Below are positions 1 through 61,059 of a stretch of 64,000 bases of DNA, piece after piece; position 1 is the first letter of the stretch, and each line of letters starts with the position of its first letter. This stretch comes from Balanoglossus misakiensis (lineage: Eukaryota; Animalia; Hemichordata), in NCBI GenBank assembly GCA_040954595.2, contig CM082592.2, positions 2,483,462 to 2,547,461 on the forward strand. The letters run 5' to 3'. The translations under genes were made by a program, and so were the position numbers. The notes under the pieces are model-generated. The model did no database searches and had not been told where the DNA came from. It worked only from the letters and a program-made list of their open reading frames with translations.

Positions 1-8
1 GTCCCCAG

Positions 9-31966: not shown

Positions 31967-33159
31967 TTAGCTATATGGACTGCAGTATTTCTGGATCAGC
32001 AGCAAGACCAGATTTGTGTGCCTATGTGGACTTTGTCTTTTGGCCAGAGTGGCCACAAGGAATGACTCAATCATAACAGCGGCAAATACAGGCAATAGTA
32101 TAAACACTATACTGAAGATGAATATAGCAAATATCAAAGAGGAAAGGACATTGCCCTGGGAGAACAGCTCAGCAGTATCCAAACCGCCAATCATCAGCCC
32201 CAGCATAGACATATAGGCAACAGACATGTTCCGGAAGTTGTTCATGAAAGACCCGAAGGCAATCAGACAATAATGAGAAAATGCTACAAGAAACAGGCCT
32301 AAGAAAAAAGTGTACCATAAAACAAGTCTGGCAGTTTGCAGCATAACTGTGTGCATCAATTCAAACACTGCACTGTGACACAGTAATTTGAGTAACTTGA
32401 TCGTCCAGGAAAACACCAGACTTGCAGTTAGCATATGGTAGGCTTCATTACACAGGGCTGCTGTGTAGAAACTTGTGAATGAGCTCCTGTCGTTGTTGTA
32501 CTTGGTCATTGATGTATCAAACTGGCTGAATATCGAACCAAACATCATGACAGTAAGCGTAGAGAGAAAGATTATCACTAAATTCAAGTAATTCCAACTG
32601 CTGAGAAAGTATTTATAGCCCTGATGCCAAAGTGCCATCATTTCAATGAGTGTGAAGTAAACCATTCCTAGCAGGTACAGAATTTGACAGAAGAGGACAA
32701 AGTAATCTATGTACAGCGTAAATTTATGATATCGACCAATCAGAAAGTCGTGCGATGCAGCAATGGACCCAGATGGAGAATATTCCATAAGTATAGTCAT
32801 CACACTGAACAGATTGCTTTGTGCATTGTGCAGTGTGAATTCTACAAACACAGCTCTGGTGTTCTCATCACACCACGTCGAATCATACATCTGCCGCAGA
32901 ACACCAAGAGCACTCTCAGATGTCACTCCCAGATCAGCTACATAGCCACCTCTGCTGTAGAGAGACAGTTTACCCCACATGTAGCTGCCTTGTGCTTGAC
33001 CGGGCGACTTGTACTGCCACATATCCGATGGGTTGGATGGGTGTGCAGTCACGCTGTCCCAAGAACCAGCAAAGGATCTTGTGTCTTCTGAGCTGAAACT
33101 GTACTCTTCACTGCAAGACTGCATATGATCTCTCATTATCCTGTTCACTTTACAGTTGT
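31967..33159 (-). CDS. polycystin terminal exon (TOP domain remainder plus the remaining TRPP-like transmembrane helices)
   Basis: YSRGGYVADLG, WCDENTRAVFVEFTLHN and WNYLNL, then hydrophobic helices; stop TAA at 31967-31969. Confidence 0.93.
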
Positions 33160-36100
33160 CTGTGAAAATAAGTTGAGAATTCACTAATATTACAACAGAC
33201 AACTAATCAGACCAGTGGTTTCAGAGAAAAAGACTTTTTTTAAATACAAACACAGCAAAAATTACCCCAAAATACAAATTTCCCCACAATTTGAACAAAC
33301 TTTAGTTAGGTCACCCTTAGCAACCTGCATAACAAATGTCAAAGTGTTTAGACCAGCGGTTTCAGAGACGAAATCAAGTGTTGAAGTACAGTGGATGTCG
33401 GACAATCACCCTATCTGATAATCTATGCGTCACTGACAGTGGAGATAAAAATCCATGTCCACCACTTGTGTGGAATATGACATATTGAGTCAGAGTGGCT
33501 CATTTGAGATTTTCATAGGGCAGTGTTTCTTGATAGTTTTCTTTCAAAAGTTTCATTTATTGGGAAAACATTGTATTGTATAAATCACGACATGTGCAGC
33601 CAAGAGCTTACATGATTTTGACAGACACATTTCTCACCATGAGGGCGCCAGTCAATAATTACAGACCAGACTATGAATCATTCACCTTCACTTATTTATG
33701 CTGCAAATGGGTCTAGCTGTGCCATTGAAAAGAGGTTAGCTTTGAAACACTTATATAATGGTTCAAAGGTTGTATGGCACAATTATCAGCAAGCTTACAT
33801 GAACAGCTGCATCAAATTTCAAAATGTCAGTTTTAACCCTTTCACCACCATGGTTCAGTCCAAACCCATATTGTTTCCTGTGGTATAAAGGTTGGACCTC
33901 TAAAGAGGAAACTGGAGGTGAAAGGTTAAAACTCTTTTCAAAAAGATCAAAATATAATCTAATATAGCAATTAGCAAGTAAATTCTGGCATCTGTTAATC
34001 TATGCTAAGCTTTCATCTAATTCCTACCTGGAATAATCCTGACTTGTCTAAGTCTAGCACTACCTAGCAATGACATACATTCACAGTTAACATCTATGGT
34101 TCCTGCACTGCCTCCATACAGAGTGGGAATTAGTGTGGCATTCATCCAGTCATACATCTCATCATATTTGGTCATCTAGCAAAGCAAGCAGTATCAGTTT
34201 GTAGTTTCCTGTGTGTACGTCACTACCACAAATGTATTTAGTTTAGGAAACAGATCCTGTTTTCAAGATCTATTCGGTGCAACTTTCAGGTACTGGTAGA
34301 AGTTGTACTGATAACTGCATAAACCAATAATTGGCTCTGAAGGTCACTATATTATCACTGAGAATACTTTTGACGTTGTAATAAAATACAAGCTATCTTC
34401 TACTTTGAGATGTGAATCTTCGACATATCTTACTTAACAACATCTTTTTTTCTTTCAATAAGATTATTATATTATTCCTGTATTAAAGTTCTACAACCTT
34501 CACTAGGTCAATTGAGTGCGTCAAGCACAATGACATCACAAGTCTCTCATTGGATATATGTGATGTGTTTTGTGAGATAATCACAACAAACTTTCTCTAG
34601 TCTGTTTGCTACACTCAATGATGGAACCTACAGTATGTTAGTCTAAAACACACACATTGTGTCCCATGCACACAGTGTGAGAACTAGCTGCAGAGTTGTC
34701 ATTTTTAAATCATGTATCTATAAGGAGGAGATTTTACCTTGTCAAAACCTGTCACAAATGTCTGTTTTAAGACATTATTCATGAGGTATCCATTTGTTGG
34801 TTGTTGGCAGTAGGCAATGATCAATAACAACAGCCAGAGTATTGCCAAGCAGATGAACTCTTTCAGAAAAGACATGGCTTCATTCAGTTGGTTTTTCTTC
34901 TTGAAGCTTTTCAAGAGCTTTTGCGATGGTGGTTGATATTGTGAGCATTTTCGGAGGTCCCTGAGTCGAGGTAACCACTCTCCGAGTTCTTCTGGCATCC
35001 ATTGAGAATTGTCTGTGAAAGATAACAGGATAATATCTGTATGGCATGTAGCCTTCAAAAAAATACATGTGCATCATTTAAATTACTGTCATAATGCTGT
35101 GTGTCTCAGTGGTGTGTAAGTGACCATAATTTGAATTTACAGCCCAACATATGTGCTAGGTTCCAGTCAGCTGTGGAATTTGTCAATGGGATTATAACAG
35201 CACATGACAATTTTGTTTTGGAAAAGTAACACATAAAGATATCAGCAAGACAAAAAGTTTTCCCTTCAACCCTTTCACCACCATGGTTTGCTCCAACTTC
35301 ATCATTTTCTCCGTGAAAGTTTGGACCGCAATCGCAATAGTGGGGGAAATGGAGGTAAAAGGAAGAAGTAATTCAACACTTGATACAGACGCATTGAAAT
35401 TTTACAGCTGCAACCGGACTTAGAAATATATCAAAATCAGTTCTTTTTTCTACTTTAACATATTTATATTTTAAAACAATGCTTATTTGGGGTAGGTTAT
35501 AATTTACTTTGATTTTCACAATAAATTATCATATAATTACCTACAATTACAATTGTACGTTTCACATCAAATCTGCAGGAGTCGAAAAATGACAGATATG
35601 CGAAATTGCTAAATCAATACAAGTACATACCAGAGTTTACATAGTGAACGTCATCTTCACTTTGGAATAAATAGCGATCATCCAAGGCCTTGCAAAAGAT
35701 ACCAGCCATGACAGCCATCAGTGCCAGAAATACAGGCTGGATTATCGGTGTTATCACCAGACATAGCAACAGGGATGTTAACCAGTCAAAGGCCCTCTGT
35801 TGGTCGTACTGAATTCCGTAGAAGACCACCACACAGGCAGAGGTCGCTATTGTAGCAATTGCCAAGAACCAGCCCAGGAAGGTCATCCCACATGCCACGC
35901 AGCTGCAATGGTGAGTCCCACATCTACATTGAGAGTGTCGGCAGCAAGCACTGCAGTCACACCGACAAGTGGACAAACACTGGCCTTGACTGCACTCGCA
36001 ACTCTTTGCTTTTAGCTCATCGCTAGTTTCAAGTGTTACTCCTTCGAGCGAAACGGCTTCGTAGCTGCTGAAAGAGTCATGCCCTCGTTGTGGACTTTCT

Positions 36101-39100
36101 CCTTTATCGGAAGAACTGGACACTGACACGTGGTCCACTGTATGAAATGTATCTGCAGAGATGTCATGCTCCACATACTGGTAACTCTCATATTCCTGCC
36201 AATCTGCCAAGATCTGGTCCAGGCCTTTTTCCCTGCGGAATTCCTTCCATGCATGTTTTCGATCAGGTGGTACTGGTTTTCTCAACACATCCCTGACTTC
36301 ACGCCTGGCATCAATCAGCGCCTGTTGCATCAAATACATGGACTGAAGCTCATCTTCTTCTTCATCTGAATCACAAGAACAAAAGGTGTACAAGCTCTCT
36401 GTAGCTGTTCTCACGGCAGCTTCAGACTTCCTCCTGCGGGGTGGAACACTTCGGAATACTTGGATGATGATCAGGTTTACAGGTATGACTATCAGAGCAC
36501 TTAAAATGCCGACGATAAGGTCTGTCCATGTGAGTCTGAACTGGCCAATTTCCAATCTCCGTTCTGCGGAACCCCGTGGCACGTGAAGTAAGACCAAGCT
36601 GACCAACATTGAACAGAGAATGAGGGAAAGACAGCAAGCAAGTCTTTGAAACCGGGTGAACTGATTGGAGTGTTGACGGGAAAAGATATTGATCAATGGA
36701 TAGCAGTCTTGAAGATTCTTCACCATCTTGGTTATGAAGCTGTTTTGCAAATTGGTTAACTCCTCTTCAGATGAGCAAGGTATAGTGATATCTGCAAGTC
36801 CTGTCTTTGCTGACAGCCAGAAATTGCCAAGGAATGCCCAGTGGGTGTTTGCCAATAGATCATGCACCAAGATGTGATCAATATACCTGAAACAGAAAGA
36901 GTTGTATGTTACACACTTCTGAATTGGACAGAAGATAGTACCGGTATACACCCAAAAATTAGCATCTTTGTCTTATGAGGGGGGGGGGGGGGGAATATAT
37001 TCTTGTGCCAGTCCATCTGGTCTTTTCTCATTTCTCCGTTCAGCTGGAAACACGACATTTTCACCATAAATGTTCTAAACAGTGCTTTAAAACTTGGCGA
37101 AGATTTTGTACCTGATAACAACAGATTTTCTAACAATAAAAATCAGATTTCTTCAAAGACCCTCTTTACATATTTTTCATCTGCATGCTTATGGAGATTT
37201 GCTCAGGAAATTGATAGGAGATGCATACATTGAATTTTGCTTTACTAATGTATCAACTTTCTAAAAGACATTTATCGTGCAGACAAGGTTGTGTGCGGAT
37301 ATGCACTTTAATGAATCTCATGTATAGCTGACCTTCAAAATTTCTTTCCATTTGTATAAAGTCTAGAGTAAAGTATAATGTGGTTCAAAATGATTCCTGT
37401 ATTTTGATGAAACTTACCACGATGGACTCCTTCCTGAGTTATCATACCAAAGTCTGATGGAATAAAGATCACCCAAGTATTCATGTGTTGTCAACAGAAA
37501 TCGATCTATAGAGCCACGCTTCAGCAGTCTTCTCTTTGATGATGAATTCAGTATGTGTGTCTCACTGGACAGGTTGCTGCCATTGATGGTAAAGGCAACA
37601 TTTGAAGTGGTTCCAGCACCTAGTCTTGTACCAGTAAATACAGTGACGTGGTAACAATACTTGGAAAAGGGATCATTATCTTCTAACACAACAACTTTGT
37701 CCTGTCCAGGTATGATGAAGAACAGACCAAATAGACATCATTAATGAAAAAGCCCCCATGGAGAATTAATAACTGTATGACTCATAGATTGAAATAGTTT
37801 ATATTGAACACCTATTGCCTGGCCATGAGGGCCATAGCGGCCGTTTATTACACCCGAGGGGCTGTGAGTTACCAGAATCATATGCTATTTCCCGAGGCCG
37901 CAGGCCTCGGGAAATAGCATATGATTCTGGTAACTCACAGTCACGAGGGGGTAAAAACGGCTGCTATGGCCCGAATATAGGCCAGGCTATAGGTGTTTTA
38001 TAATAAACCTCATGCTAACAGCTGGGAAAATCTTGCAATTTTCTCTTGAGGTTGGCAGACGACATCTTCAGCGGTGGCCATTGTGTCAGACGACGCGACG
38101 CTGATTGACGTGACCGAGTCTGCGCACTCACGCTGGTCACGTGACCGGTTTATATTTTTTCTGCTATTTCCCTAGCGGTTCATAGTCGATTCTATTTTCC
38201 TATCACGTGACGGATTCTGGCGAATCACGACACAGTATTAGCATGAGGTATATTATAACTATAATTATTAAAATCATTCCCACTCCACTAGGGAGCTTCA
38301 ACATTATGAGAGAATAAGTGACTGATATTTTATTGGAAGTTGAACAAATCTGATGGAGAATGTTCAAGGAGTTTGCAAACCAAATATCAAAACAGTTAGA
38401 TCAGCAGTTTCTCATAATTTTTTAAGGAAAAATAAACAAAAATTATATACACAGTAGAACATTATATTTTCATATTTTATACACATCAATTAACATATAG
38501 AAAAATCAATAAGACATTCAAAGCAATCAGACCAAGTAATTTCTGATAAATCATTCTACCCAAAATTAGAATTGCCTCAAAACACATCTGTATTTCCAGA
38601 CAAGTGATCTCATGAGATTTTTTAAAAACTAAAAACAGCAGAAATCAAACTGTCAAGAGCGCTGTTCTGATTGGAGCAATAATAGACTGAACAAAGTATT
38701 GTGTGACTCTTCAGCTATTGCCTTGTACCGGTACATGCACAATGAGAAATGTCTCACCTCTCACCAGGGACGGCTTGATACAAACAAAGCCCCTCTTACC
38801 AGAATTTTTACAAATTCGTAGTAAATTTGGAAGTATTACCTTTACATCCGTTTGGTCTATCCAAAGAGCCCACACTGCAATCAGCAAAAAGATGACAAAC
38901 ACAACTGCCATAGCAAGTATGATGGGATGAGTCACAATTTCTTTCAACGTCAAGCTGTCATCTATCAAATCTGTTAAGGTTGTTGTTGTTGTTGTTGTTG
39001 ATGATGACAACGACAACATCATCAGAGTGTGTGTCACAGAAGTTGGTTTTATCAAAGTTGCTGGTGACAAGCGATTACCAAAAAGACTTAAATGGTTACA

Positions 39101-42100
39101 GTTACACTTGATGTCGTTAGCTGTTGAGTTGGAATCCACCTAGCAAAATAAACAGACAGAGAAAACTCACTCAAAAGCACTCTAGTGGCCGCAGAGTCAT
39201 ATTAATTGTCCGTGGATGGATGGCTGCATTTGTCAAACTGAAGAAATCAACAAAGCTATAAATGATAGAAGTAAAATCTTTTTGTTTAAATTCCCCTGTC
39301 TCTTTCAACAAAAAACAAATGAGAGAGAGAGAGAGAGCTTATAGATCGATGGATTTGTTCAAGTAAAATAACACTGCTATCTGATTTAAATGAATTGTGA
39401 ATTAAAGTTGGGTTCCATATTTAAACAGTCTAAATACTAAATTTACCTGACAACCAGTTGTTTGCCACTTTTCTTCATCTGCATTCCAATACATACAGGC
39501 TGTTGTGTAGAATGAAGCATTCACAGTAACGCCATACATGGTCTCCTCAGGGTGCAGGTTGACACCAACCACATAAGTACCATTTCCAAAATGCTCCCAT
39601 GGCTGAACAATGATGGTCCTTGACGCTGTCTCATGTCCAGATGGTAATTCACGGAATATATGGTGGTTGTCAACTGTGGGGACCACTTGATATCCAAAGA
39701 AGACACCCAATCTGGCCAGTGGATTATCTGCAGAACCGACTTCAAGAAGAATAGCTGACTCGTCACTGTCAACCGTTATATTCTTCATTCGTAATGAATC
39801 TTTGGATAAAGTCCATGTGACATGATATCCCATCTGCTGATCATGCTGTGGTATTGACATCTGAATTGGTGTGCTCAAATTCTTCATTTCTATCACACTT
39901 TCGTCTTCTCTGGTCAGTTGTAGACCACTTAGTGTAGACGTCACAGTCTGGCCAGTATCAGCCCACGAGAAGAGATTTTCCTGAAAATGTTGCATCTGGT
40001 GGACAAAGGCAGACAGGATTGAGTTGCACGACAAATACTGGATATTCAGTATCATCAATTATTGTGAATATCACTGTCTATACCAAGACGTTGCCACTTT
40101 GTTCCCCACTTGCTAATTTGCCCAAACAATTTGAGGAACAATGTTTCTATTTTCTCCATGTCCTCACCTTGACAACAACAACATCATCAGAGTGTCCGTC
40201 ATCTTCACCAAACAAGACATCACCGGACGGTAGCTGAAATAAGGCGCCATCATCGTCAACAAGTGAACTATCACCAATGTCCAACTGTTCTTGTTTACTC
40301 AGCAGGACTGACAAACTGTGACTTTGGAGAATGGTTGGCTCTTCTCCAGCTAATGTGTTCATCAATACAGCATCTGCAACATTGTCGATGGCTTCAAAAA
40401 CATCAAGTATCATGTCATGTTCCTGTGAGAAATACATGTCAGTTTTGAAAACATTAGAATTCTACGCATCTTGTACTGAAGGATGTAACTAGTATGCCCT
40501 TGAAGTCACTCACATAAACTGAGCAATGGTGATTGGGTGTAAGGTATGGTGAAGGCAGGGCTAATTTGAATTTAAAATGCTACCCACCGTTAATTACACA
40601 TATGTACACATCCTTTGTCCAATCATTGGAAAAACATAGTCTCTGATTGACTTCAGAGGGACCCTGCCTTCACTATAACCTTACACCCAATCACCATTGT
40701 TCAGTTTATGTGAGTGACTTCAAGGGCATGCTAGTTACATCACAATTCCCAGCAAGGGGTATGGGGTTTTATTGGGCCAGTGGCATGAGTGAGGCTAGAC
40801 GTTAGTTTTGGAAGCAAAGTGGACAAAATACGGCTAGGTACTAGATTATTGAATTTATGAAATGGGAGTTAAATTTTGGAATCTCAGTGACAACAAAATA
40901 GTGTAACTGTAACAAGTTATGAAGTCTGTCATACCAATTATCCTGATTGATGTTATGTTCTAAATAAGGTCTTGTTGTGGTTTTCAGCAACGTTCTTCCT
41001 CATATCCTACAAACTGGATGGAAGTTGTGTGTGGTCGAACGTTGATTTACTATATATCCACATGTAGAATCAAATGGTGTCTTGTATCAAGCATAATTAA
41101 TGAAAAAGGGCAGCGAGAGAGAGACTTTGACCCTTTATGGACACATCTCAAGTAAGGACAGTTTTTCTGGTCTCAGAGGTGTCCTTAAAAGGCAGGTTTC
41201 ACTGTATATTGCATTTAGGAAAGCTAAAATTTCAGGGGGATTAAACCTGGCAGTGTTTTCTTTTGTGTTTGTATGAAGACATGAAATCATCTAGTGTAGG
41301 CCCTTCCAAGTACAGCTGTTTGTACCAGTACTATAAGGGCGTACTACGCAAACTTTCTTTAATTTACTAGTATCAACTTTGGCGCCCGGAAGTTAGTGAA
41401 AGACGTGGATTTTTTGAAAAGCAAAACATATTCCACATCATCGGTTGCACAAATAATCTTTTTCGGAAATAATACTAAGTACAAAATTTGGAAATTCCCA
41501 GTGTTTCAGAGTTTGGTTTTCAGGCCGATTAGTCTAGCTTACTGGGAAGCCCTACAAGTTCACCACTACGATCGCATTTGTTCCTGTCAGAACATGGCTT
41601 GTCTTTTGCCACGTGTTTATGTAGTCATGCATAAATTAGATTTAAAATGCTTTCCCACCACATGGTGTTGAAATGTATCACTGTGTGGGTATTATTGAAT
41701 TTAAATCACATCGTTTCCAAGTGCCACGAGACATCATCTTTTTCCTGATGTGCACCTGTCACCTCCTCTAAAGATATTTGTCAAAACCCCCAAACAAACT
41801 TTAAGTTTTGGGGCTGTAAGGAGGTTTACAAGTACCAGACAGTTTACGATTGGTGTAACACTGGTGCTGGGCCTGGGGAAGTGTAAAAAAATAATGTGGA
41901 CATTGTAAGTCGGCCTAGGGGCGACTTAGTTTGGTTCTGCTAAGAAGGGGGGTTTAGGGTCGACCTAAGATCTGGGCCAAAGCAAATTCGCGTATGTGGA
42001 CGTGTTGGGTGCACTGAGAACATGGTTTGTAAAACCAATGCAAACTTGACATTCACTTGTGTTTGAGCATAAATTAGGGGGGGGGGATGCGTAGATCCAG

Positions 42101-48100: not shown

Positions 48101-51100
48101 TCAAAATATCAGGAAGTCAGTACACAGGTGTTTTAAAATAGAGCTGTACACATTTGAAAAAGCAAAAGATGTGTATCTGTTTAATTATCTCCTTAGCAAC
48201 TGTTGCCTAGCCACTTGAATGCTTCAATTTTTCCTTCAACTCTGTAATCAGGTATCTATGATAATTTGATGCTAAACGTCATGCTTCAACTGACCTGAAG
48301 GCGAGAACTCTGTAAGATTCAACGCTTCTGGGAAAGTTTCATTTGGCAGTTTGCACAACCAGTGAAAAGATAAGCTTGTTTGCTGATCTCTAAAATCAGG
48401 GTCCTTGGATTCAGATGCATCCACAACTAAAGTTGAATTCCAGCCTGCAAAAGAGACAAGATGTATTACATATATTTGAGTTAGGGTTGTCATCTCTTAT
48501 TTGCTACCTTCTTTTCATTGGCCTGCAATTAAAGGTATACGGTCACCTATGGAAAATTAGCTCTAGTTACCATCGCAAATTGAGATCTAGCCAATCACAG
48601 ATTTTCAGTGGGTGGCACACACGAAAAAAAGAGTGCCACCATATGTTCTTTAGAAGGCTCAAATACGCCATTTCAGCCATATATGGGCGTATGTAAATTG
48701 GCGGTGACTGTATACCTTTAATCAAACGATCTAGGCTGATGGGCCTTTTGAGTTCTCTCTACCAAATGCATTGGATGCATTGGCTATTTGCACGTCAAAT
48801 ACTCATACCCATGAAACCTGCTTCTGCGTCACGTTTTATCGTTGGAGTCCTCAGTTTGACATGCAAATAGCCAATCAACTTTGCCAAAATGTTATGCTAA
48901 TCACACCAATACAAAATGTAAATTGGCTGTCTGATGATTTTGACACTATTCTACCATGTCGGTTTGGTAGAGACCAATTATTCATTATAACAAGAATTTT
49001 ACTCTCATATCCTACAAATGGGATGGAAGTTGTGTGTGTTCGAACGTTGGTTCACTATATATCTACATGTAAAATAACATAACAGTGTCTTTTATCAAAT
49101 ATTAATGGAAAAAAGGGCAGCGAGAGAGAGAGACTTTGTCCCTTTAGTTTGAGGTAAGCTAAACGAAAACCCACCTGTTGTCCTGAATGAGCCACCGCTA
49201 ATACTTGGCATTAATTCAGATTTGATGATTTCGATCCATGTCTCATCCAAGTTTGACCAATGTCTATCATTGGTGTCAATAATCGATGTTGTCAGCTTGA
49301 AAAGGTAATATCCATAATCCAGGGAATAAGCAGGTACAAGGATGTCTCTGAGCCTTCGTCGCACTTGCAGATTGTAGATATCAGTCAACGGTGAATCTTC
49401 CATGACAGTAACATTGAAAACTTGCCACTGGTAAACAACGCCTTTCCGGAACTGACAGTCGGTAATGACATTGGCAGATAGCATGAAATGAGCATACTTT
49501 CGATAGGTGGTAGCAGTTGAGTAATTGAAGCCTCCTCCTTTGATTTCAACAGCAGGTGGGAGACAGAATATGTTGATGATGAAGACCTCTGACTCTGCGA
49601 AGATACCATTCCCAGTAACATTTGCCGTGTATGTGCCACTCTCGCTGTAGGAATGAGAAATAACCACTTTCAGGAATGGCCTCGGGTCGAAAGTCACCTC
49701 CATCCTTCTATTTAGATAGCCACTGATGTCTGAGCTACGACGAGGCAAAGGAAATTCCACCGGAGTTGAATCATCACCGAAGTCTATTTCAAAGGGAGTT
49801 GATGGTGGAATATTCTTGGTGAATATCAGGAATGTGACATCTTCTCCTGCCTTCTTGGCTCCTGTATTCAATACATGTAGATCTGAAACATGCAAGAATT
49901 ACAATCAAACATGATGAAGAAATATTTAGAAGTGGAAATTTGAGTGACAACACTCCCTTTTGACCAATTTGTTAAATGTACTGTGTTGGCTTCAATGGTT
50001 GCTACTCTATCCTAGTGCACAAACAGCACAAAATCAACCATTATAATACATATAATGTGCCGCAACTGGGTGTATTTTATGGGAACATATGGGTAGTAAA
50101 TTAACCGAATAGTGACCACATAATCCCTAACATTTGGCTTCTCATGTTGAATTCATCAATCTAATGCCGAAATTAACCACAGCAAACATCTACAAATGTA
50201 CAACTTGCAATAAATGCTAGAAATTCATTTGACATACTTTACCAAACAAGTAAACGTTCCTTTGTTTATTATTATCATGGCGTATTGTGTGTATGTTGGC
50301 AAGGTAATGGTGTTAAATGATGACCTGGGTATCAAACATGATGTTAATGTGCTCCCATTTGAATAGAATTACATTGATGCACCCTAATTTTGTTTTGCAC
50401 AAAATAACCAAATAATTCATTGTGTTACTTGCATAGTAGTAAGGGACAACAAACTGTAAATTTAAAGAAACTATTTAATGAACTCATGTGTTAATTAAAG
50501 CTGCAAGCAGCATTGAAGGGGCCCAAGCATAGAGTTAATAACCATTGGACTCCATTCAGGGTTGTACCATTCAAATGCGTAGGCTGTATTTGCTCTCGAT
50601 GTTGAGATATGGGGAAGTAGGCAACCACCCGAAATGGATGTCCTACAAGTACAAACACAACAACCAAAGGTGAATTTCTACGTTGTAAGTACTTCAGTAA
50701 GTACTTCAAGGGTCAGCTGAGGGTACCCAAAAATTGGGCCAAAAATTAGGATTCTTATTTGGTTCATATTCAAGACAACGGAAAATCCTCGCCCTTTGAG
50801 TTTGTCAAATTAGATATGGCCATAATAATGAGTTACGCAAGTAAGTTACAGGTGGCCCCAGGAATTTAGCATTTCATGTGCATGCTAACATATGGAAAGC
50901 AGGTCAATGGACACCTGAGGTCACCCGAATATTTGACAAAAAATTTTCATTCCTGTTTATGTCATGTGCAACAAATCCTACATTTGCAGCCCTTTCACTT
51001 TGCCTACCATTAGGTATGCACGTAATACATGAATCAAGCAGGTGTCACAGGTATCCCCCTGTATTTGGCATTTTATGATAGTTTCATCCCTCAAAATACC

Positions 51101-54100
51101 AAAGCTGCACCTGTACAACGTGCTGAGTCTAGAGATATGGCACTGTACGACAGAGGTCATCCAAATCACCTTAGGCTGCATTCACAAACACCTCTGGAGG
51201 GGGGGACGGGAGAATTCAATTTTTTTACCGCTAATTTTCACATGCCCCCCGGCCCGTACACAACCCGAAATATTTTCAAATCCCCCCCTTCCGAACTGCC
51301 AAAATTTTGAAATCCCCCCCCCCCACCAATTTTCTTTCACAGAGCAAAACACATCACCTATCTATCTTGTAAAAAAAGAAAAACAGCGCTCCCATGAAAA
51401 GAATTTGAAACTGATGTACCCCCTCACTGAACATTGTTTTTATTTTTAAGTATTTGTATTCTGTGTTGGGAGACATTGTAAACCGAGAATTGAAGGGGGT
51501 GGGATTGTAAGAATATGATGTAAGAAAATTTTATAAAATACAGAGCTCAAAGCTGCATTTTAATGAACCTGGCAAAAGTAAATTAACTCAACTACCGATA
51601 TGTTGGGGAGGACAAATTTAACCGTCGCCGCTCAAAGTTATCATGGGGTGGGGGCAAATCCCCTGACCTGGGACACTAGATAAACTAGTCAATGATTGAA
51701 AGGTGCTGATGAATGGAGGGGGTGGGTGTCCCCCTCCCACATTAGAAAATTTTGTAAAATAAAGGGCGCGAAACTGCATTTTTGTGGACTCAAAATAAAT
51801 ATTTAGTCGTCAAAGTTTTCAAGTCCCCCCCTTTCAGTCCCTAAATTATTTCAAACCCCCCCTTCCATACCTTCAATTTTTTCAAATCCCCCCCCCCTCA
51901 ATTCTCCTGCCCCTCCATCACCTTACAATAGTGTTATAGCGCCCTCACACAAAACTTTGTGGAAACATTCATATGCTGTAGTGGTCTGGACAAACTTCTT
52001 GTTATCCACTTATGTGGGAATTAGTTTTATGATGTACAGAAAACAAGACATACAAAGACGTTGTTAGGAAGAGAAAAATTTAGACTTTTTAGGCAGTTCT
52101 AACATATGTAATGCTTCAAGTAAAACTTGACACCACTTATTGATTTTTTGCACACTCAGCATTGTCCACAAGATTTTAGACCATCTTATTGAAAAAAGTT
52201 GCATAGGAACACCCAATTTCTCTTTATTATTGTTTTAAAAATTAATTGATTCACATTTATTTAAAAAAACAAGAAAATTACAATATTTTAAAATATGTAA
52301 AATTAAGTATGTGGTGGCCATCTTGGGTAAAACCTTAATAATTACACATTTCCAGTTGTCAGATATTGGTAGACTTTTAATATGTTATTAAATAATGAGA
52401 TTCAATACTACACAAAACCGTTGAGAAACTTTTTGTTGCATTTTTTTTACGGTAAGGTCCTTTTATTTCGTAAGTGCAGCCGACTATTCATCATTTATGA
52501 AATCCACTGTCCAATATGAAATTCTCTCTCTCTGCCATTCTATCAGTGGGTGCCACTGACTCAACAAACTCACTTGTGACTCAAGAAAGTCACAGTATAC
52601 TTTTAATACAATGCTGAAACTGGTTACTTGAAATGTAAAATGTAAACAGTTGCTAACTTACCAATGCAAGTTGTATTAATGCAAATTTTCGTCTGGATGT
52701 TTTCATCACCTGTACAATTCAGGCCAAATTCTGGAGGTGGTGGGCTGTCACACATGCGAATCCTGCTATGAAATGCAAGACCACATGTCACTGGGCAGTC
52801 TGGCCAGGCACTCCACTCTCCCCAAGAGCCACTTACTAAAAAAAGAAGAAATTCTGTAGTAAATGTGGATTTGTGCATCACATCACATCACATCACATCA
52901 CATCACATCACATCACATCAACAGAGCCAGTTGCAGTTATGGATCCAACAGCCAGGGTCTACCTTTGGCCAATTAACAAGCTGAGGGTTTCTCAGCCAAT
53001 CAGGGTATTTTTCCAACCCTCACTCATGGTTTTTCACAGACTGAGAGTCGTACAACTTTTCGCCTACGGCTCGAAGTTGCACAGCTCCCCGAAAACCACT
53101 TGTATACAATGACGTCAAACAAAGAAAAATATCATGGGATTTTATGTACTGGTAAGTACCGGTATATGCCAAATTGGCAGAAAAAGTTTCCTGTGGTCTT
53201 TTGCATTTGGCATGCCAGGTAACTTTAATTTTACTACATTGAACCCTACTTATTCAACAGGAAAGCCAGTCTGTAGTGTACCATGTACATTTCTTTGAAT
53301 AATGATGATGTGCACTACCTAAATTACTAATTATGCAAACAGCTCCATAAAATTATGTAAGTTAAACCTACCAACAAAGCTTTGATCAAATCTAAGTTAA
53401 ATCATGACCACCTGTATACTATACCGGTACATGTGAAAATTGCCTGAGAACTGTTTTATGCTGAGGATTTTACAGAGAAAGAATAATCTTGTGACAGATG
53501 AGACATGAGTAACCGACACATCAGAAAGCACGAAACAGACCCATACTGTAGGTTAACCAGTCCATGCACACACTCCAAAATGACTGACGGTGCTATACAA
53601 CCTATCAGTACTCACCTTGTTGACAATGGCCAATGCCAGATGAATCACCCCATCCTTGAGCACATTCAGTTTCGTTAATACAGGTAGCTTTTACTCTGTG
53701 ACAAGGTTTATTGTCTTTACAGTGACATTTCCAAATACATAACATACCCCAAAATCCATCCTCACAATGGTCAGGAACTGTAATGTAAAGGAAAGATATT
53801 GTGATATATCCCATTGATAAAATGTAATAACACTAAATAATATTGAGTCTTATATAGTGCACGTATATCCACAATTGTGCTCAAGGCGCTTTACAACAAT
53901 TATTACCCCTGGTCATTGGACCTTACTTAAATCCATTCAGCTCCTTGGGGAGCAAACAACAGCTCACATGCATGTGCAGCCATAAGCGCAGCAGAGCTAA
54001 ACACACACAATTTGCAATCTCTGTCCTACCAGGTACCCATAACTCCTAGGTGGGGAGACGCAATTAGAAGTAAAGTGCCTTGCTCAAGGACACAACACCA

Positions 54101-57100
54101 CAAGCCATGACGGGGCTCGAACCCACGATCCTACGATCACGAGTCTGATGCTCTAACCATTGGTCTGGACTATGATGCCTCCATCAAAAATATTGCTATC
54201 AGGTAAAAGAAATCTAACAGACTTTTCATATATTACATTATCATTGAAGTATACATGTACATAACAAACATTACTGCAGATATGTGCTTTCATAATTTAT
54301 GACAGTCTTCCACACATCCAACACTGGTTTCTGGAAAATAAAACGTCTGTTGCCAAAACTGGCAAAAAATATCCATACACAATACATACTGCATATTTTG
54401 TCCCAATTTCTACAAAAACTGGATGCGCATGTCCATGCAATGTACATTCTGAGGAAGGTCCAAACTAAATTTTAAAGAAAGTGGACAAGTTCCTCAAAAT
54501 TTGAACACCTTAAAAACAATCATACTGGTGTTTCATACAGGAACAAATTAAGTTAAAGTCACACTGTAGCTTAATTAGACTTAAAAATATCCATTTAAAG
54601 CTCCGCTAAGCTAATCATCTACATTTACATTTCAAAGTATCTCATCTCCGATTTCTTGGGGTTTTCCGTCAGAAAGTGTCAGTGATAATGATTTATTTTA
54701 CCATTCATTTTACAACTTCTATCTGCATCCATCAAAGTCCACAGAGAAAATAACAAGCCTGCAGTAGACTTACGCCCCTCATCCAAGAAGAGATTACTAT
54801 GGGATAGAACTTGCAAAACTTACCTTGACAATTGACACCTGACCATCCATTTTCACATGGGTCATTATCGGGACATGAACCAGTCATTCTGTCACAAACA
54901 CCAGAAGAACAATGACAACTTTGGTCACAGTCGTTTCCATACCATCCTGTTGGGCACTCTGTCAAAGAAATATCAAAATAATATCATCATCTCTTTCATA
55001 AACTCACACAATTCACCCATGGCACGTTTGTGGCCATTGTTGTAAGAAAGACCAAGCGCCATTCTTGACCGCCGAATTTCCCCATGCTGCAGGCAACCAC
55101 GCTGCCAGTTTCACCTTGGGGCCGGGGCTGATCCATGTCTCGTCCGAGTTAGGTTACCGCACGTACATCACTTGCATCCTGCTACAGCATATAAGTATAT
55201 GCGTACGCGTAAATGTGTACAGGGCGCCTGACTGGCCAACCTTGACAAGGTGCCCCAGATAGCCTTGCCCGTTCTGTTATCTTTCAATGGATTTTTGGGG
55301 GGCGCATGTCACACAACTGTGACAAAATATTTGCATGTACACATAACATTGTAGTTTTGCATGAAAACACAAGAAATAGTCGTGAACGCGAGCCCTGTCA
55401 GGTAAATACTAAATAGATGAACAACAGATTTGGATAAAATAGTAAAATTTGGTTTATTAATAATCAAACAATCAAACAACATGCTACCTGATCCCTGAAG
55501 TTGCAGTGCAGCTTGGCATTCGATTTATGACTTCCAACTCAGGGTTTAATAAGTGAATTAAGCAATAGCTTACCAGTTAAACAGTCCATTCCTGTAAATC
55601 CTGAAGCACAACTGCATCCATAAGGATTGTGATGACACAAAGTAGAACCAGGACAACCATCTTCTGCAGTTCCAGGACAATAAACAACACATCTCTTTCC
55701 CATAGTGTGCATCTCACAAGCTTGAATTGCAAAGATAAACATACAATTATATAAATGACTGGTACCAGCTATAGTTCTGTAGTGCACATTATACACATGA
55801 TGACTGACAATGAGGGCAACAGTGTATTTTGATGACAGAGGGCGCTGCTAGTCACAACTAAAACAGTCTTGTTTTCCCGGGGGCATAGCCCGAGGGAAAA
55901 CAGACTGTTTTGGTGTGACTGGCAGTCCCGAGGTCATTAAAAATACACTGTTGCCCAAATATGTCAGTCATCATGTGTTTTGTAACACACCAAACATGAC
56001 ACACACCATATCCAGGCAACAGTATTGGGCAGAAACCGATCGAACTGATGCCCTAGGGAACAGTTCGAAATGACTAAGGTCACATGACGGCGTATTGACG
56101 AATCACGATTGACGTTTCGCTGCTTTGTGTGCTATAATAAACACTGTGCTATAAATGAACATATTCAAGCAAAACTGCCAGACAGGCTTTCATGAATCAA
56201 TCAAAAGATACTCACTATTCTCGCACTGAAGACCGACAAATTGAGGAGGGCACAAGCATTCTCCATCCTCAGAAAGACAGATTCCACCATTGTAACAGGT
56301 TTGACATTCATTCAGACATTCAGGTGGTCCCCATTTTCCATTTGGACATCCTGCAGAAATAAGTAAATGAGGAATAATTACATTAAAATACTTGTTAATG
56401 ATACACTCCCTGTAAGATCAACCCTATTTTGAATTTGTTGACATCCTTATGTCCATGTACGCATACCATGATTGTCGAGTACTCTTTGCAATGGGTGACT
56501 GAATATACTGGCATGTCACCTTTTTATTATATTAAAGGCACGTAAGCTGCAACTGGATAAAAAATCAATGTTTTAAAAAATCTCATATATGCTTTTAATT
56601 ATATCTATTAAATGCTATTTCATGATAATATATCAAGCTCAACACTTATTTATGACAAAATGGCCAAAAATTAAAGAAAAACGAAAATTCCTGAAATTTT
56701 TAAAAAAGTGCAATATTGCAATGAAAAATGAAAATCTGATGTCTCAGTGGTGTACATTTACTTCCATGAGCTCAAGTGGATGAGATCATGTTTTGTTTAT
56801 GAAGTTTCACAACCGGAAATGCGACATTTTCATTGTTTCTTTCATTTTCCCACGGTGGCGGCCATAATCGCTTGCGGCAAAGCTTTATTACTTATCTGGT
56901 TAAAACTTGCATATGCACTCATATTTAGTGTTTATAATGCTTGTGTATAGTTCACTGCCTTCATCTGCATGGACTAATGGTAGTGCAGAGTGAAACAAAA
57001 ATTATGAAAATTATCCCAAAAGTTACAGCTTACGTGCCTTTAATTGCTTAATTATATATTTCAATGTACTGGTATAACCACAATCTGAGGCTGGTAGTAT

Positions 57101-60100
57101 GTTTGCGTCTATCCATGAGTAAAATCATTTAAATAGACCATTCAAAGTGTAAAAGGAAAATCATGAAAATAATGCAAAAATTGGCAGCTATGGGGCTATT
57201 ATCGAATGAGAGGAACATTAGTTGTAACTATTGGTTTTACTTTCAGTATTTTTGTTATGTGTATCACATGCAATTTCTTCATCATTCAGGAATGTGAACA
57301 GGAAACTGCAGTAGATACAGAAAACAACATTACTGGAAAACAGAGCGGAAAAGTTTAAGCTAATGGACCTTTAATAATGATAGTGTATGAAATAGATTTT
57401 CTTCATTTTCACAGTTAGCATCCTGTCTGCAACCATAGGTAAATAAAAATATTTAACTTCTCAGGGTATGGCAAACTACCAATGTGATGTAAAGATGGGT
57501 TGGCTTTTTTACTTGAATCATACTATACTTGGCTGTTACCTGTACTTCTGTGCCCCAACCCCACCAACAAACCACAAAAACGATTCAAGAGCAAAAAAAC
57601 ACCCATAACTGTATCAGATTTTAAAATTAGATTGAGATTGAATAAACAAGCAGTTTTTAATTTTCTTATAACTCTTCCATATGATACGTTTATGGCACAT
57701 GGAACTCATAATACCCGGTAATCACAGTTTAGTTGGTATTACGGTAGACCAGTTCAGATTTTCTGGTAACCAGTACTTGCCTATAATATGTACGATCATA
57801 AAACCATGGAGTCCAAGACTTCTCTGTGTCTCATTGGAATAGCATTCATAAATACCACCATCACTCATCCTTGCAAATGGTATTGTGACATTACTCAGAC
57901 CATCCCACTCTGGTTTGATCACTCCGTTATGGCGCCACTTTAAAGATGACTTTAATATGTGCGGTTCAGGTATCATAGTCAATGTCACAGGTTCTCCCAA
58001 ATTATACCTCATTGTCAGTCTTAATCCTTCTGGTTTTATTTCAGCTACAGGAAAAAACAACAAGATGTTAAAATTAAAGCTGCAAGCAGCATTGGCAGGG
58101 CACAAAGGTAAATTAAGATCATACAGTTGGATGTTTTAAGAAGTTAAGCAGGACTTTAAAGGGACAAAGTCCGTCTTTTTGATGTCAAAATCCATTAAAT
58201 ACTTACTCCAAATCAATAACTTGTACATGTACAATGACCACACACATTGGCCTAAAGAATACTATGTTTTTGCCTTTTGCACTAAGATTGAACTTATGTC
58301 TGGCGCGGTATGTGCGATTTGAATCAGTCGCCATTTTGAACCTAGGTGGCAAGCAATATACAAATCACCGAGTGAAGTCCAACTTGAAACATCAGCATAA
58401 GTCGATTATTTTAGAATTCCATAGAGATGATGTTCCTAACCTTGGTATGATTTTACTGGGACATGTTGTACCGGTAGAACAACTAACAGAATCTGAGTAC
58501 ATGTATAGGCATACACAATTCACGCTGTGTCTTCTTGGGAAACTGCTATCAATATATTTGCGCGCACACACGACGATAGTAGAACCTGGACCAGGAACTT
58601 GCTACCCGACCGTGTCGTGTTTCAATTGCCAAGAAGCATATTATTTTGATGACATTCTAATTTTGAATTTCCGAGAAAATGTTTTATCTGACCTGTAGAT
58701 TTCTAGGCGTGCCTACATTTCTGTGCTGATGCAGTGAGTTGTGGGTGACCACGGTTACGTTTACCAGACACGTGAGCTCAAGCTCAATTAATAACTACAA
58801 TTCCTGTTATGTCACCTCCTTGAATACTAAATAAGTTTGGCACAACACTAGCAAACCCATGTGCAAAGATTGTAAAGAAATTACCATACCTTCAGCAATC
58901 ATTACGATTATTGTCAACGTTTTTACACGTCTAATGATGCGTCTAAAACTAATATGTACATCAGGGGACACATTGTAAGCACCAGCTTTCAAAGATCCTG
59001 TTGGTAATGTGACTTCCATCGAAATCATAGAAACTCCTGATACACGCTTTCCTTCTGGTAATCCATGTCCTGTACCTACATCCACCGGTCTTCCAATTCT
59101 TAACCTCATCTTTTTTGGAAATCTTAGTGCACCCAGCGCATAATTATTGTCGGATATATATGAATACAATCGAACTTTTGATGACATCTGTGGAATTGAC
59201 GCATTTACCATTACAGAATAATCCCACCAAAGACCTACAAAAAGAAAGAAGATCAAACAGTTAATGTTAACAATGTACGCGCAGAACATATAACCAGAAA
59301 ATTGCGCGCACTCGTCTGTTTCCCATAGGATTACATTGATAATTGCTAGAAAACAAACTTCTATTATTGTCATTTTCACAAAATTTTACACGTAGCTAAG
59401 TACAGTAAATATAAATTCATTGGTCAAATAAAATCATGTGGTCAACGCACTCTATTTTGAGATAAATTTCGTTAAAATATTTGCCCATAGACAAACCATT
59501 GGTGAACAATTCTTTACTATCAATCACGTGATCTGGCAATGCGTCCCATGGCGCAGTCATTTCCAGATGACGGGCAAGCAATATTTCGGCATCCAGTAAA
59601 AGTTTTTCCGAGTATGTTTTTACTTTAGAACCGCCAAACACATAACATGTATCGGGTATGGTGCCTCATCAGCCTCATTGCATTTCGTCTAGCGTACGCA
59701 GTCTTTATCTGCACCACTTTGCTAAAGTTGCCCATCATCTGGAAATTGGAATGCGAACGTAACTGCCACCTGAACGCGTCTGACGTCATTTGATAGCGAA
59801 GAATGCTGAGTCAGCAGTTTTCTTCTATTATCGACTAAAATCATGGCCCTGTATTTCAAAAACAAGCATGGTGATCCCTATATTTTATCATGGATTTTCA
59901 TTATACAGACACAAGATAATCCAAAAACCAACAATAAAAAGAAATGACAATACTTTCAATTTTTGACAAACGTACATCCTTAAAGGGACAAAGTCATTCT
60001 TGCTTGTGACCAAATTTTGATCAATACATGTAGTGTTTGATACAAAAAGTTGTCAATGCTGTTGGACTTCTTGAAACATAACAAAGCCCCCATAACTCCC

Positions 60101-61059
60101 CAACTTTGGTACAAAAAAATGTTTTAGTTGATAAAGTGTTGAATGACAATTGAATGACATAATATCAAAAAATGGTTTTTTTAACCCAAAACGCCACCAT
60201 TTCCGGGGGTCAATAAAATGTACACGGCCTCGTGTAACACTCAGACCTGTAGAGCTAACGCTGGCCATGTTCGTTAGGGATATAAATGTAAGCCTATTTC
60301 TCATCAAGACGCCTAGCGTAACCTAGGTGGGTTGGGTCGCGGGGCTTGCGCTTGTTTTGTGGTGCAGTTTGGCGCCAAACTGCACCACAGAATAGAAGCG
60401 CACGTACGTAGCTACGATTATTGTGGCAGCTGCAAGACGCCCAATTTTGCATTACATTTGAACAGCAAAGAATGAAAGATCGCTTGCATTTTGTACAGCT
60501 CACCCCAACCCTCAGTCCCCCCCCCCCCGCAAAAAATGATGCATCCCTTTCTCCACAGGCGGCACCGAAGTTAGTGGGCTTCTCTGCAGTCCGCCCACAG
60601 TTGAGTGCTATGTCGCACGGTCAGCGGGGCCGGTAAAAAAAAGCTCATTTCAGTCTCCGGATATCTTTACTGTTTTTGAGTTACCGTGACAATAAAAATG
60701 CATCAAACCCGCACTCTAATAAATAACATCAAAAGAACACCAAACAGCCGACACCGGAGGCCAAAAAAATTCAGTCATTTTTTTTTGCAGACGATCACTT
60801 TGAATGAAAGTAACCTTTGTCGTCCACTTCCGAGTAAAACTAAAAGGCGCGAAGCCTCAGTGAGCACAGGAATCGAATGTATCTCTCACAGTCGTTTGAA
60901 ATAACAAGAAGCTCCACATGTAAGATCTAGCAAATCAACATAGTTTAGAGTACAATTAATGAACTTACAGTAACTTGGTTCGGGACTCGTGGCTAACCAT
61001 ATTATGGTCACAATTAACCACCAGGAAAGCACTCCTGATAATCGAAGTCGAGATTCCAT
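31967..61059 (-). CDS. Polycystin-1 family (PKD1L/REJ-type) receptor-channel with Tie-like Ig-Ig-EGF ectodomain, TSP1, PKD, REJ, GAIN/GPS, PLAT and 11 TM; ~2640 aa
   Basis: 25 phase-consistent exons totalling 7923 nt: 60969-61059, 58890-59234, 57781-58044, 56216-56350, 55574-55720, 54824-54958, 53616-53777, 52662-52835, 49175-49882, 48295-48444, 47510-47702, 46541-46788, 45968-46204, 45134-45279, 43808-44017, 42939-43064, 42418-42609, 40168-40422, 39447-39995, 38840-39139, 37418-37701, 35631-36886, 34738-35012, 34028-34175, 31967-33159. Motifs: PKD (IDFGDDS, HSYSESGTY), REJ (DASESKDPD), GPS (CMYWN...WQTTGC...CNCNHL|SLFG), PLAT (YHVTVFTG...GTTSNV...WYDNSG..PSW), FTRFQRLACC, RLRQVR and TRAVFVEFTLHN. 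Confidence 0.88.
37793..38261. mobile_element. non-autonomous hairpin element (Crypton-like architecture)
   Basis: Perfect 38-bp stem (37862-37899/37903-37940) with a GCA loop inside a ~190-bp imperfect hairpin. It is followed by the inverted pair TTATAATAAACCTCATGCTAA / TTAGCATGAGGTATATTATAA. The class assignment is an inference. Confidence 0.6.
40482..40741. mobile_element. 260-bp foldback element/MITE with ~80-bp inverted arms
   Basis: GATGTAACTAGTATGCCCTTGAAGTCACTCACATAAACTGA...GAAGGCAGGG pairs with CCCTGCCTTC...TCAGTTTATGTGAGTGACTTCAAGGGCATGCTAGTTACATC. Confidence 0.8.
43134..43627. mobile_element. MITE with ~40-bp imperfect TIRs
   Basis: TCAAGAGGGCGCCATCAATGACC...CTTTTCAGAGACA versus TGTCTCTGAAAAG...GGTCATTGACGGTGCCCTCTTGA. 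Confidence 0.72.
44514..44817. mobile_element. TTAA-flanked (Kolobok-like) non-autonomous element
   Basis: TTAA|ACCCTCTAGAGCTGCCA...TGGCAGCTCTGGAGGCT|TTAA; second copy at 23312. Confidence 0.7.
47114..47329. mobile_element. TA-flanked MITE (Tc1/mariner-type)
   Basis: TA|CTGTAAAACACTTTATTTTCGCGA...TCGCGAAAATAAAGTGTTTTACAG|TA, with internal TTTTCGCG repeats. Confidence 0.85.
47760..47939. mobile_element. Kolobok-like MITE, copy B (inverted relative to copy A)
   Basis: Reverse-complement match to 48533-48717; ends GTGACCGTATACCT|TTAA. Confidence 0.8.
48533..48717. mobile_element. Kolobok-like MITE, copy A
   Basis: TTAA|AGGTATACGGTCACC...GGTGACTGTATACCT|TTAA. Confidence 0.85.
51174..51916. mobile_element. 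second copy of the 29637 MITE, right TIR truncated
   Basis: Colinear with 29637-30365; lacks the outer right TIR. Confidence 0.85.
52662..52835 (-). CDS. thrombospondin type-1 repeat exon
   Basis: GSWGEWSAWPDCPVTCGLAFHSRIRMCDSPPP..GLNCTG; phase 1-1 exon. Confidence 0.92.
52876..52920. repeat. (CATCA)n pentanucleotide microsatellite
   Basis: Direct reading. Confidence 0.95.
53616..59234 (-). CDS. Tie1/Tie2-like ectodomain module (Ig1, Ig2, EGF1-3 plus a fourth EGF-like repeat) at the N-terminus of the polycystin
   Basis: EGF1 CPNGKWGPPECLNECQTCYNGGICLSEDGECLCPPQFVGLQCE and EGF2 ACEMHTMGKRC...LCHHNPYGCSCASGFTGMDC closely follow Tie2 as recalled (KWGPEC...CMNNGVC...GECICPPGFMGRTCE; ACELHTFG...PDPYGCSCATG). 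Ig2 ends in DGGIYEC; Ig1 has IGR and GAY. Confidence 0.85.
53826..54182 (-). mobile_element. tRNA-derived SINE
   Basis: On the minus strand: tRNA-like head (TGGTTAGAGC, B-box GGTTCGAGCC), central GTTGTGTCCTTGAGCAAGGCACTT segment, and a LINE2-like tail (AAGCGCCTTGAGCAC...GCACTATATAAG...TATTATT). Confidence 0.8.
55791..56139. mobile_element. second hairpin element with the same architecture as 37793-38261
   Basis: Imperfect ~185-bp hairpin 55793-55978, followed by a TTGTAACACAC / GTGTGCTATAA inverted pair. Confidence 0.55.
56536..57039. mobile_element. Kolobok-like non-autonomous DNA transposon
   Basis: TTAA|AGGCACGTAAGCTGCAACT...AGTTACAGCTTACGTGCCT|TTAA. Confidence 0.82.

Follow-up and report, generated by a model that had tools for sequence, protein, structure and literature searches.

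A Tie-type receptor head on a polycystin-1-family subunit in the acorn worms Balanoglossus misakiensis and Ptychodera flava

Within a 64,000-nucleotide window of the hemichordate Balanoglossus misakiensis genome (assembly GCA_040954595.2, contig CM082592.2, positions 2,483,462 to 2,547,461; "the window" denotes this whole stretch), we identified a minus-strand gene whose predicted product joins the head of a Tie-type receptor to the body of a polycystin-1-family protein, in a real, conserved and apparently undescribed architecture. We read the product as a polycystin-1-family subunit in which the usual lectin head has been exchanged for a TSP1 repeat preceded by a Tie-type Ig-Ig-EGF4 module, with a basic tip that would recognise a surface or matrix partner, and put the probability of this sequence-based reading at roughly 0.6. 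Proteins of the same layout occur in a second acorn worm, Ptychodera flava (principally P0001 and P0021). The features of the gene are as follows.

60969..61059, minus strand: exon 1, start codon and signal peptide (amino acids (aa) 1-30); 41-46% identity with the P. flava P0001 N-terminus
58890..59234, minus strand: exon 2, diverged Tie-type Ig1, net charge +9, cysteines absent; found with a donor-only Ig1 hidden Markov model (HMM), no Pfam match
57781..58044, minus strand: exon 3, Tie-type Ig2 with a GC donor at its end and no counterpart of Tie2 H163-R167; 60% identity to P0004, 23% to shark Tie1
56216..56350, minus strand: exon 4, EGF1; Pfam EGF_2, E 1e-5
55574..55720, minus strand: exon 5, EGF2 with a Tie-type PYGCSC motif; by alignment, no Pfam match
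54824..54958, minus strand: exon 6, EGF3; exactly this exon is skipped in P. flava isoform X3
53616..53777, minus strand: exon 7, EGF4, common to invertebrate Tie-type receptors and not in shark Tie1; by alignment
52662..52835, minus strand: exon 8, TSP1 repeat where the donor family has an Ig3-FN3 stalk; Pfam TSP_1, E 9.7e-12
49883..52661, minus strand: fusion-junction intron, phase 1, 2779 nucleotides (nt), repeat element at ~51170-51870
49175..49882, minus strand: exon 9, PKD domain and start of REJ; Pfam REJ E 1e-10, PKD below cut-off; 57% identity to P0001
45134..48444, minus strand: exons 10-14, remainder of the REJ module; Pfam REJ per exon, consecutive profile positions 98-410
39447..44017, minus strand: exons 15-19, GAIN region to the first half of GPS; 51-60% identity with P. 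flava
38840..39139, minus strand: exon 20, second half of GPS, HL/S site, Thr/Ser run and first transmembrane helix (TM1); Pfam GPS on the joined orthologue, E 1e-7
37418..37701, minus strand: exon 21, PLAT domain; Pfam PLAT E 1e-10; 85% identity to P. flava
35631..36886, minus strand: exon 22, end of PLAT, TM2-TM5 and Cys-rich loop; by hydropathy; 60% identity to P0021
31967..35012, minus strand: exons 23-25, TM6, TOP domain, TM7-TM11, ~35-aa tail and stop; Pfam Polycystin_dom E 1e-32, PKD_channel E 7e-29

The gene model, joined by hand from splice sites, comprises 25 coding exons between 61059 and 31967 (7923 nt, 2640 aa), and as the initial annotation had proposed, its spliced frame is uninterrupted from signal peptide to channel, the only stop being the terminal one. 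The domain order is signal peptide, Ig, Ig, four EGF, TSP1, PKD, REJ, GAIN/GPS, PLAT and an 11-TM polycystin channel. Kinase, FN3 and Ig3 domains found no Pfam match in any of the 25 exons, in agreement with the absence of kinase and FN3 exons reported earlier. The splice sites are GT-AG throughout, save for a single GC-AG intron, which follows the Ig2 exon (exon 3; donor after 57781, at 57781-57780). Phase 1 is shared by all junctions between the end of exon 1 and the start of exon 11, that from 52662 to 49882 included, and the head exons are therefore symmetric modules. An in-frame stop lies ~30 nt upstream of the exon 1 start codon. Farther upstream on the minus strand, a TATATAA at 63526, an initiator-like stretch ~30 nt on and a strong donor at 63369 mark 63526-63369 as a putative promoter with a non-coding first exon for the polycystin gene.

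Searches of RefSeq revealed two P. flava genes that share the layout of the window gene domain for domain at 52% identity over the full length. P0001 (XP_070543344) was obtained with exon 9 as query, and a search with P0001 residues 140-720 returned P0002, whose cluster comprises, besides the fragment P0018, the isoform proteins of a single gene (six, X1-X6); these accessions (XP_070543334-41 and XP_070543344) carry automatic names of the kind "receptor for egg jelly-like", X1 being P0021 (2635 aa). Alignment of both genes to the window model begins at the signal peptide, and TSP1 is followed by PKD in one chain in P0001 and in all six isoform proteins of the P0021 gene. Isoforms X2 (exon 1 swapped), X3 (EGF3 exon skipped) and X6 (stop at the exon 20/21 boundary) deviate exactly at exon junctions of the window gene, and the entry of X4 lies near the Ig2 exon; that the variants arise at conserved intron positions suggests that the RefSeq models are transcript-based. 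Isoform X6 (P0017) ends past TM1 and is thus a channel-less, SpREJ1-like form.

Within the 2779-nt junction intron we found neither a stop exon nor a credible signal-peptide exon (the six ATG-led hydrophobic peptides have h-regions that are unusable by eye), which bears out the earlier statement that no stop separates the Tie-like and PKD exons and no second signal peptide precedes 49882. Together, the open frame, the matching phase and the TSP1-to-PKD join of the P. flava isoforms uphold the proposal of a single gene, and we consider it very probable that the Tie-type head and the polycystin body are encoded as one. About a quarter of the intron (~700 nt) consists of a dispersed repeat. This element resembles a miniature inverted-repeat transposable element and is present in two copies, at 51170-51870 in the junction intron and at 29633-30390, with blocks 83-96% identical; the latter copy has a perfect 40-nt terminal inverted repeat, and kindred pieces occur at 61500-62250.

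The body of the predicted protein, by its REJ, GPS, PLAT and 11-TM complement, is a GPS-bearing polycystin-1-family subunit. Pfam, run on each of the 25 exons separately, gave matches above cut-off for EGF_2, TSP_1, REJ, PLAT, Polycystin_dom and PKD_channel, while Ig, PKD and the intron-split GPS fell below it; the domain set expected by the initial annotation was accordingly recovered for EGF, TSP_1, REJ, PLAT and PKD_channel, with PKD and GPS below cut-off and Ig_Tie2_1 unmatched. REJ was matched in six consecutive exons, five of them above cut-off, and scored 335 bits in P0001. The GPS, with its HL/S site ahead of TM1, is divided between two exons (orthologue E 1e-7), and Pfam places the PLAT domain directly after TM1. 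Eleven TM helices derive from ten hydropathy peaks past the signal peptide and an S4 helix set by alignment to PKD2; the last six are homologous to TRPP and include the TOP domain (Pfam and alignment), and PDB matches of the channel region were PKD2, PKD2L1, PKD1L3 and PKD1. A trinucleotide run at 39020-38970 (minus strand) encodes, between the GPS site and TM1, a stretch of Ser and Thr, where the P. flava copies carry a Pro/Thr repeat. This stalk is variable, and longer than the short stalk of vertebrate polycystin-1 (PC1). The loop ahead of TM4 (~36010-35880, minus strand; aa ~1975-2020) is Cys-rich here and in P. flava, and is a possible lipidation or metal site.

Homology of the head to Tie was indicated by several comparisons. 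Tie2 was both the best PDB match of the P0001 head (2GY5, E 9e-24, spanning Ig2-EGF3) and the first-ranked Foldseek match of the modelled P0001 ectodomain (E 7e-13), the latter fit being local (template-modelling score 0.21, root-mean-square deviation 28 Å) on a model with a predicted template-modelling score of 0.36 and a predicted local distance difference test (pLDDT) below 50 for Ig1. On a Tie-family Ig1 profile built exclusively on 11 non-polycystin rows, window exon 2 scored 23.3 bits, compared with 6.4 for the top of 2000 shuffles, and the window model reached 181 bits on a donor-only Ig2-EGF2 profile. VIA-align, by contrast, placed Tie2 at rank 18, level with generic Ig folds in score (Z 10.1 versus 11.2) but over 153 residues versus ~84. 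Judged by these PDB, Foldseek and profile matches, the head is Tie-type and homologous to Tie Ig1-Ig2-EGF, as had been proposed. A further lead is an echinoderm EGF/Ig_Tie2_1 cluster at 0.85 in an Atlas search with the P0001 head.

Single Ig exons yielded less. Exon 2 alone produced no match in a full HMMER scan and none usable in the Atlas, and its model (pLDDT 48) showed weak Ig-fold matches (E 0.05 or worse), with Tie2 not among the matches listed; the Ig2 exon alone matched generic Ig domains, Tie2 being in none of 43 PDB sequences. Ig1 of the window lacks cysteine, the family's cysteine motif having been lost; a frameshift in exon 2 was rejected as the cause, the remaining frames being short and unrelated. 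The Pfam domain Ig_Tie2_1, which the initial annotation had expected, matched no exon of the 25. Its assignment of the Ig domains as Tie-type is upheld by the 23.3-bit score of the window Ig1, but Ig_Tie2_1 goes unmatched and the first domains of P. flava do not score.

Relatives of the head point to its source. A word-index search with P0001 residues 140-720 gave 15 matches, of which two, both from P. flava, carried the fusion; among the 13 non-polycystin relatives, six have a tyrosine phosphatase domain, six have no catalytic Pfam match, and one is a kinase (shark Tie1). Identity of the window Ig2 is 54-60% with the four hemichordate members, as against 23% with shark Tie1, and EGF4 is common to the window and the invertebrate group only, being absent from shark Tie1. 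By these measures the head is closer to invertebrate Tie-ectodomain receptors of phosphatase type than to the vertebrate Tie kinase, and the earlier derivation from a growth-factor receptor kinase is not supported, since the nearest relatives are invertebrate receptors that are mostly phosphatase-type or non-catalytic. A Tie-type head is likewise carried by receptor phosphatases of echinoderms, hemichordates and chelicerates (among P0003-P0015), is tandemly repeated in P0003 and P0007, and is combined with PAN domains in amphioxus P0008; no description of this phosphatase family was found among the open-access papers listed by searches for it.

For head and body alike, the closest relatives are proteins of enteropneusts. 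Trees were computed on 14 rows (the EGF2-4 tree without four rows lacking EGF4; P0008 and P0015 omitted from all). The EGF2-4 tree grouped the window with P0001 and P0021 at 92/91, under the tool's starred threshold, and the Ig2+EGF1 tree placed all three weakly (72/75) with hemichordate donors, while the Ig1-EGF3 tree was unresolved and had long branches. Likely, the Tie-type head was acquired by shuffling from a family of invertebrate phosphatase receptors with Tie ectodomains, for which a single capture in hemichordates by phase-1 exon shuffling would be the simplest reading. Since TSP1 occupies the position of the donors' Ig3, it is likely a separate insertion. In an atlas of the acorn worm Schizocardium (PMC13554239), gene numbering reaches 32 or more for Pk1l2 and 8 or more for Tie2, and with both families apparently expanded in acorn worms a head shuffle becomes less surprising.

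The head has diverged much faster than the body. Between P0001 and P0021, identity is 39% in Ig1, 53% in Ig2, 54-56% in EGF2/3 and 56% in TSP1 (five of seven head domains at 39-56%), compared with 74-97% in exons 9-22; paralogues of the donor family retain 69-73% in Ig1 and 83-87% in Ig2 (P0004/P0006: 73 and 83%). Between species, Ig1 identity falls to 12-21%. Both lineages retain all 24 cysteines of EGF1-3 and all eight of EGF4, as well as the order of the exons and their open frames. Net charge of Ig1+Ig2 is +9, +6 and +14 in the three polycystins, which are non-independent sequences, and -4, -2, -7 and -11 in four hemichordate donors. Because the rate contrast and the basic charge both point that way, the fast-changing, net-basic head is likely a recognition tip.

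Several observations weigh against parts of this reading. The first domains of P0001 and P0021 obtain no score on the Ig1 profile (-0.7 bits), and the ectodomain model, with its poorly modelled Ig1, does not recover the compact Tie arrangement; the unscored P. flava Ig1 and the unresolved Ig1-EGF3 tree also make a second head capture in one lineage possible. The transcript basis of the RefSeq models is read from the isoform pattern, and the second P. flava copy is split in the annotation into P0001 and P0018, the latter 92% identical to the C-terminal half of P0021. Fast divergence is not seen in EGF1 (78%) or EGF4 (87%), and the rate contrast could arise from gene conversion of the body or relaxed constraint. 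The charge excess lies in Ig1 in the window and mainly in Ig2 in P. flava, and Ig1+Ig2 of further relatives is neutral to slightly basic (0 to +3). Finally, the tail past the last helix is ~35 aa in both species, leaving no room for the usual coiled coil; a C-terminal coiled coil is described for three of ten SpREJs (PMC1934368).

By analogy with described members of the family, the protein is probably a TRPP-partner sensor subunit. PC1 is cleaved at the GPS, assembles 1:3 with TRPP and is activated through its ectodomain (PMC12799467). On this model, the window protein would cleave itself at the GPS with the ectodomain staying attached, the cleaved subunit would take a single place in a four-subunit channel whose other three members are TRPP (PKD2-type), and engagement of the ectodomain would modulate gating. 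Autoproteolysis and 1:3 assembly with TRPP are also known for PKD1L3. The basic Ig tip would more plausibly recognise a sulfated glycan or glycoprotein than an angiopoietin-like protein. We infer a ciliary or gamete site of action, sperm and cilia both being plausible locations by analogy. A hemichordate pk1l2 paralogue marks the feeding ciliary band of the tornaria (PMC13554239); this Schizocardium expression was rejected as evidence for the window gene, the C-terminus differing by eye.

Regarding the ligand, a polyanionic glycan or glycoprotein is favoured at modest odds because of the basic, fast-changing tip, the egg-jelly fucose sulfate polymer that is the ligand of sea urchin SpREJ1 (PMC1934368, where SpREJ lectin heads are also reported to be under positive selection), and heparan sulfate as a reported ligand of Tie1 (PMC8438194). 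As a class, a polyanionic glycan remains a tentative candidate, and another protein or matrix partner is equally tentative; a head with no ligand is unlikely, and a fibrinogen-type ligand more so. Direct opening of a PKD2 channel by a soluble extracellular protein, fibrinogen-type or other, at the Tie-type tip also appears unlikely.

A special case of our preferred reading is a gamete or allo-recognition receptor resembling sea urchin REJ1/REJ3, that is, a species-specific egg-coat sensor on sperm. The REJ-family body, the quick divergence of the tip, the tandem-like duplication in P. flava (the longest contig listed is the same for both genes), the stop of P0017 past TM1 as in SpREJ1, and the positive selection on SpREJ heads (PMC1934368) are all consistent with such a role; yet sperm specificity is missing in most SpREJs (PMC1934368, PMC13672419) and the hemichordate pk1l2 paralogue is found on a larval feeding ciliary band (PMC13554239), and we judge this specialisation somewhat unlikely. 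The loss of the Ig1 cysteine motif, the 12-21% identity of Ig1 between species and the annotated isoforms that lack either Ig1 or the signal exon would also suit a head that acts as a passive spacer or as a tether to the matrix and drifts under relaxed selection in a mechanosensory complex. However, the complete retention of EGF cysteines (24 of 24 and eight of eight), exon order and open frames at 52% overall identity makes this account rather improbable.

The initial annotation had suggested that the head binds a fibrinogen-related (FReD), angiopoietin-like protein through Ig2 and thereby gates a PKD2 channel. Indeed, Ig2-EGF is homologous to the ligand-binding region of Tie2, whose Ig2 is engaged by angiopoietins through their fibrinogen-related domain (PMC8294587). 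In Tie2, however, binding needs the F161-E169 motif, which carries much of the affinity, tabulated half-maximal effective concentrations (EC50) showing binding lowered ~20-55-fold in V165A and ~8-40-fold in R167A (PMC8294587); H163-R167 of this motif corresponds to a five-residue gap in the window row, in the profile of the window and its relatives, and in the invertebrate donors. With these residues missing and the Ig1 cysteine motif lost, an angiopoietin-like binding mode is unlikely, and the donor receptors being mostly phosphatase-type or non-catalytic, we regard the suggestion as very doubtful. That two adjacent genes, one for a secreted Tie-like fragment and one for a polycystin, were falsely fused in the models of both species is highly improbable: the junction intron is the longest and holds nine AATAAA/ATTAAA hexamers, but these are frequent in AT-rich DNA, the phase matches, no stop exon or second signal exon is present, and all RefSeq isoforms of the distant P. 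flava keep the join.

Another gene and a candidate one lie in the window. Directly behind the polycystin, at 27119-7334 on the minus strand, is a gene resembling adhesion GPCRs, in which four pentraxin exons are accompanied by a stalk rich in Ser and Thr, GPS and 7tm_2, and hence a second GAIN-bearing receptor. On the plus strand, exons at 1-5000 resemble an SLC22/MFS transporter by eye; none of the three exons tested matched Pfam at E 0.01.

Comparison with known systems places the body with PKD1L2 and SpREJ3-4-type polycystin-1s, which are alike over the whole stretch from PKD to channel (11 TM, one PKD repeat, REJ, GPS, PLAT); SpREJ3, at 2681 aa, is near the length of the window model (PMC1934368), and the top non-hemichordate matches of the PLAT region were amniote PKD1L2/L3 at 44-47% identity (best 120 of 223 matches). 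Whereas that type bears a C-type lectin/SUEL head, the window protein has Ig-Ig-EGF4-TSP1 and a very short C-terminal tail, and the parts described for the ten SpREJs in the available text of PMC1934368 are CTL, EGF, SUEL, WSC, PKD or Ser-rich only. The head is shared with invertebrate Tie-ectodomain phosphatases and "angiopoietin-1 receptor-like" proteins (P0003-P0007, P0009-P0013, P0015), both in the Ig1-Ig2-EGF1-4 order and in a shortened Ig2 strand (hemichordate members: Ig2 54-60%, EGFs 33-64% identity); in contrast to these, the window has no Ig3, FN3 or phosphatase, has lost the Ig1 cysteine, and has a basic rather than acidic tip. Vertebrate Tie1/Tie2 kinases (2GY5, 4K0V) have homologous Ig1-Ig2-EGF1-3, from which the window differs by the lack of kinase, FN3, Ig3 and H163-R167, the extra fourth EGF and the unmatched Ig_Tie2_1. 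The P. flava proteins (XP_070543334-41, XP_070543344) have an identical layout and are likely orthologues, although they are duplicated, have further diverged Ig domains, and bear database names that do not mention a Tie-type head.

Three word-index searches found the fusion in P. flava only, and the PLAT-region search (best 120 of 223) was nearly all amniote PKD1L2/L3; the Tie Ig2-EGF profile matched none of the other 118 proteins from these best 120 (117 of amniote PKD1L2/L3 type, the other an unnamed PLAT protein). The fusion is thus known from two species, and with thin sampling of invertebrates a wider absence is not implied. A Tie-type module is not among the heads described in the accessible parts of reports on a coral REJ protein (PMC4890752) and planarian PKD1-likes (bioRxiv 10.1101/2024.07.17.603829), and neither "Tie" nor "immunoglobulin" occurs in the available main text of PMC13672419. 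Searches of the open-access literature (subscription journals and bioRxiv supplements lying outside this scope) listed no paper that pairs "REJ domain" with "Tie2" and no description of a Tie-headed polycystin; the initial annotation, which knew of no description of the architecture, was to this extent correct, RefSeq containing it under automatic names.

Varied heads are a known theme among polycystins, and head swapping is normal in the polycystin-1 family. What activates these proteins is, to our knowledge, still poorly understood, and for most of the heads (lectin, PKD, LRR, WSC) a ligand has yet to be defined. The present gene is a natural chimera, in which the head of a structurally well-known receptor fold sits on an intact polycystin body and has been kept in two lineages ~52% identical; if a ligand were found, it would offer a handle on head-to-pore coupling. 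Were a soluble protein to gate through the Tie-type tip, this would be a natural ligand-gated polycystin, showing an N-terminal head that drives GAIN/stalk-coupled gating, a matter unsettled for human PKD1. The Tie-type module emerges as a mobile unit in invertebrate deuterostomes, found on phosphatases, on non-catalytic receptors and now on a channel subunit, and in acorn worms the rapidly changing tip of the chimera could serve in the recognition of gametes or surfaces.

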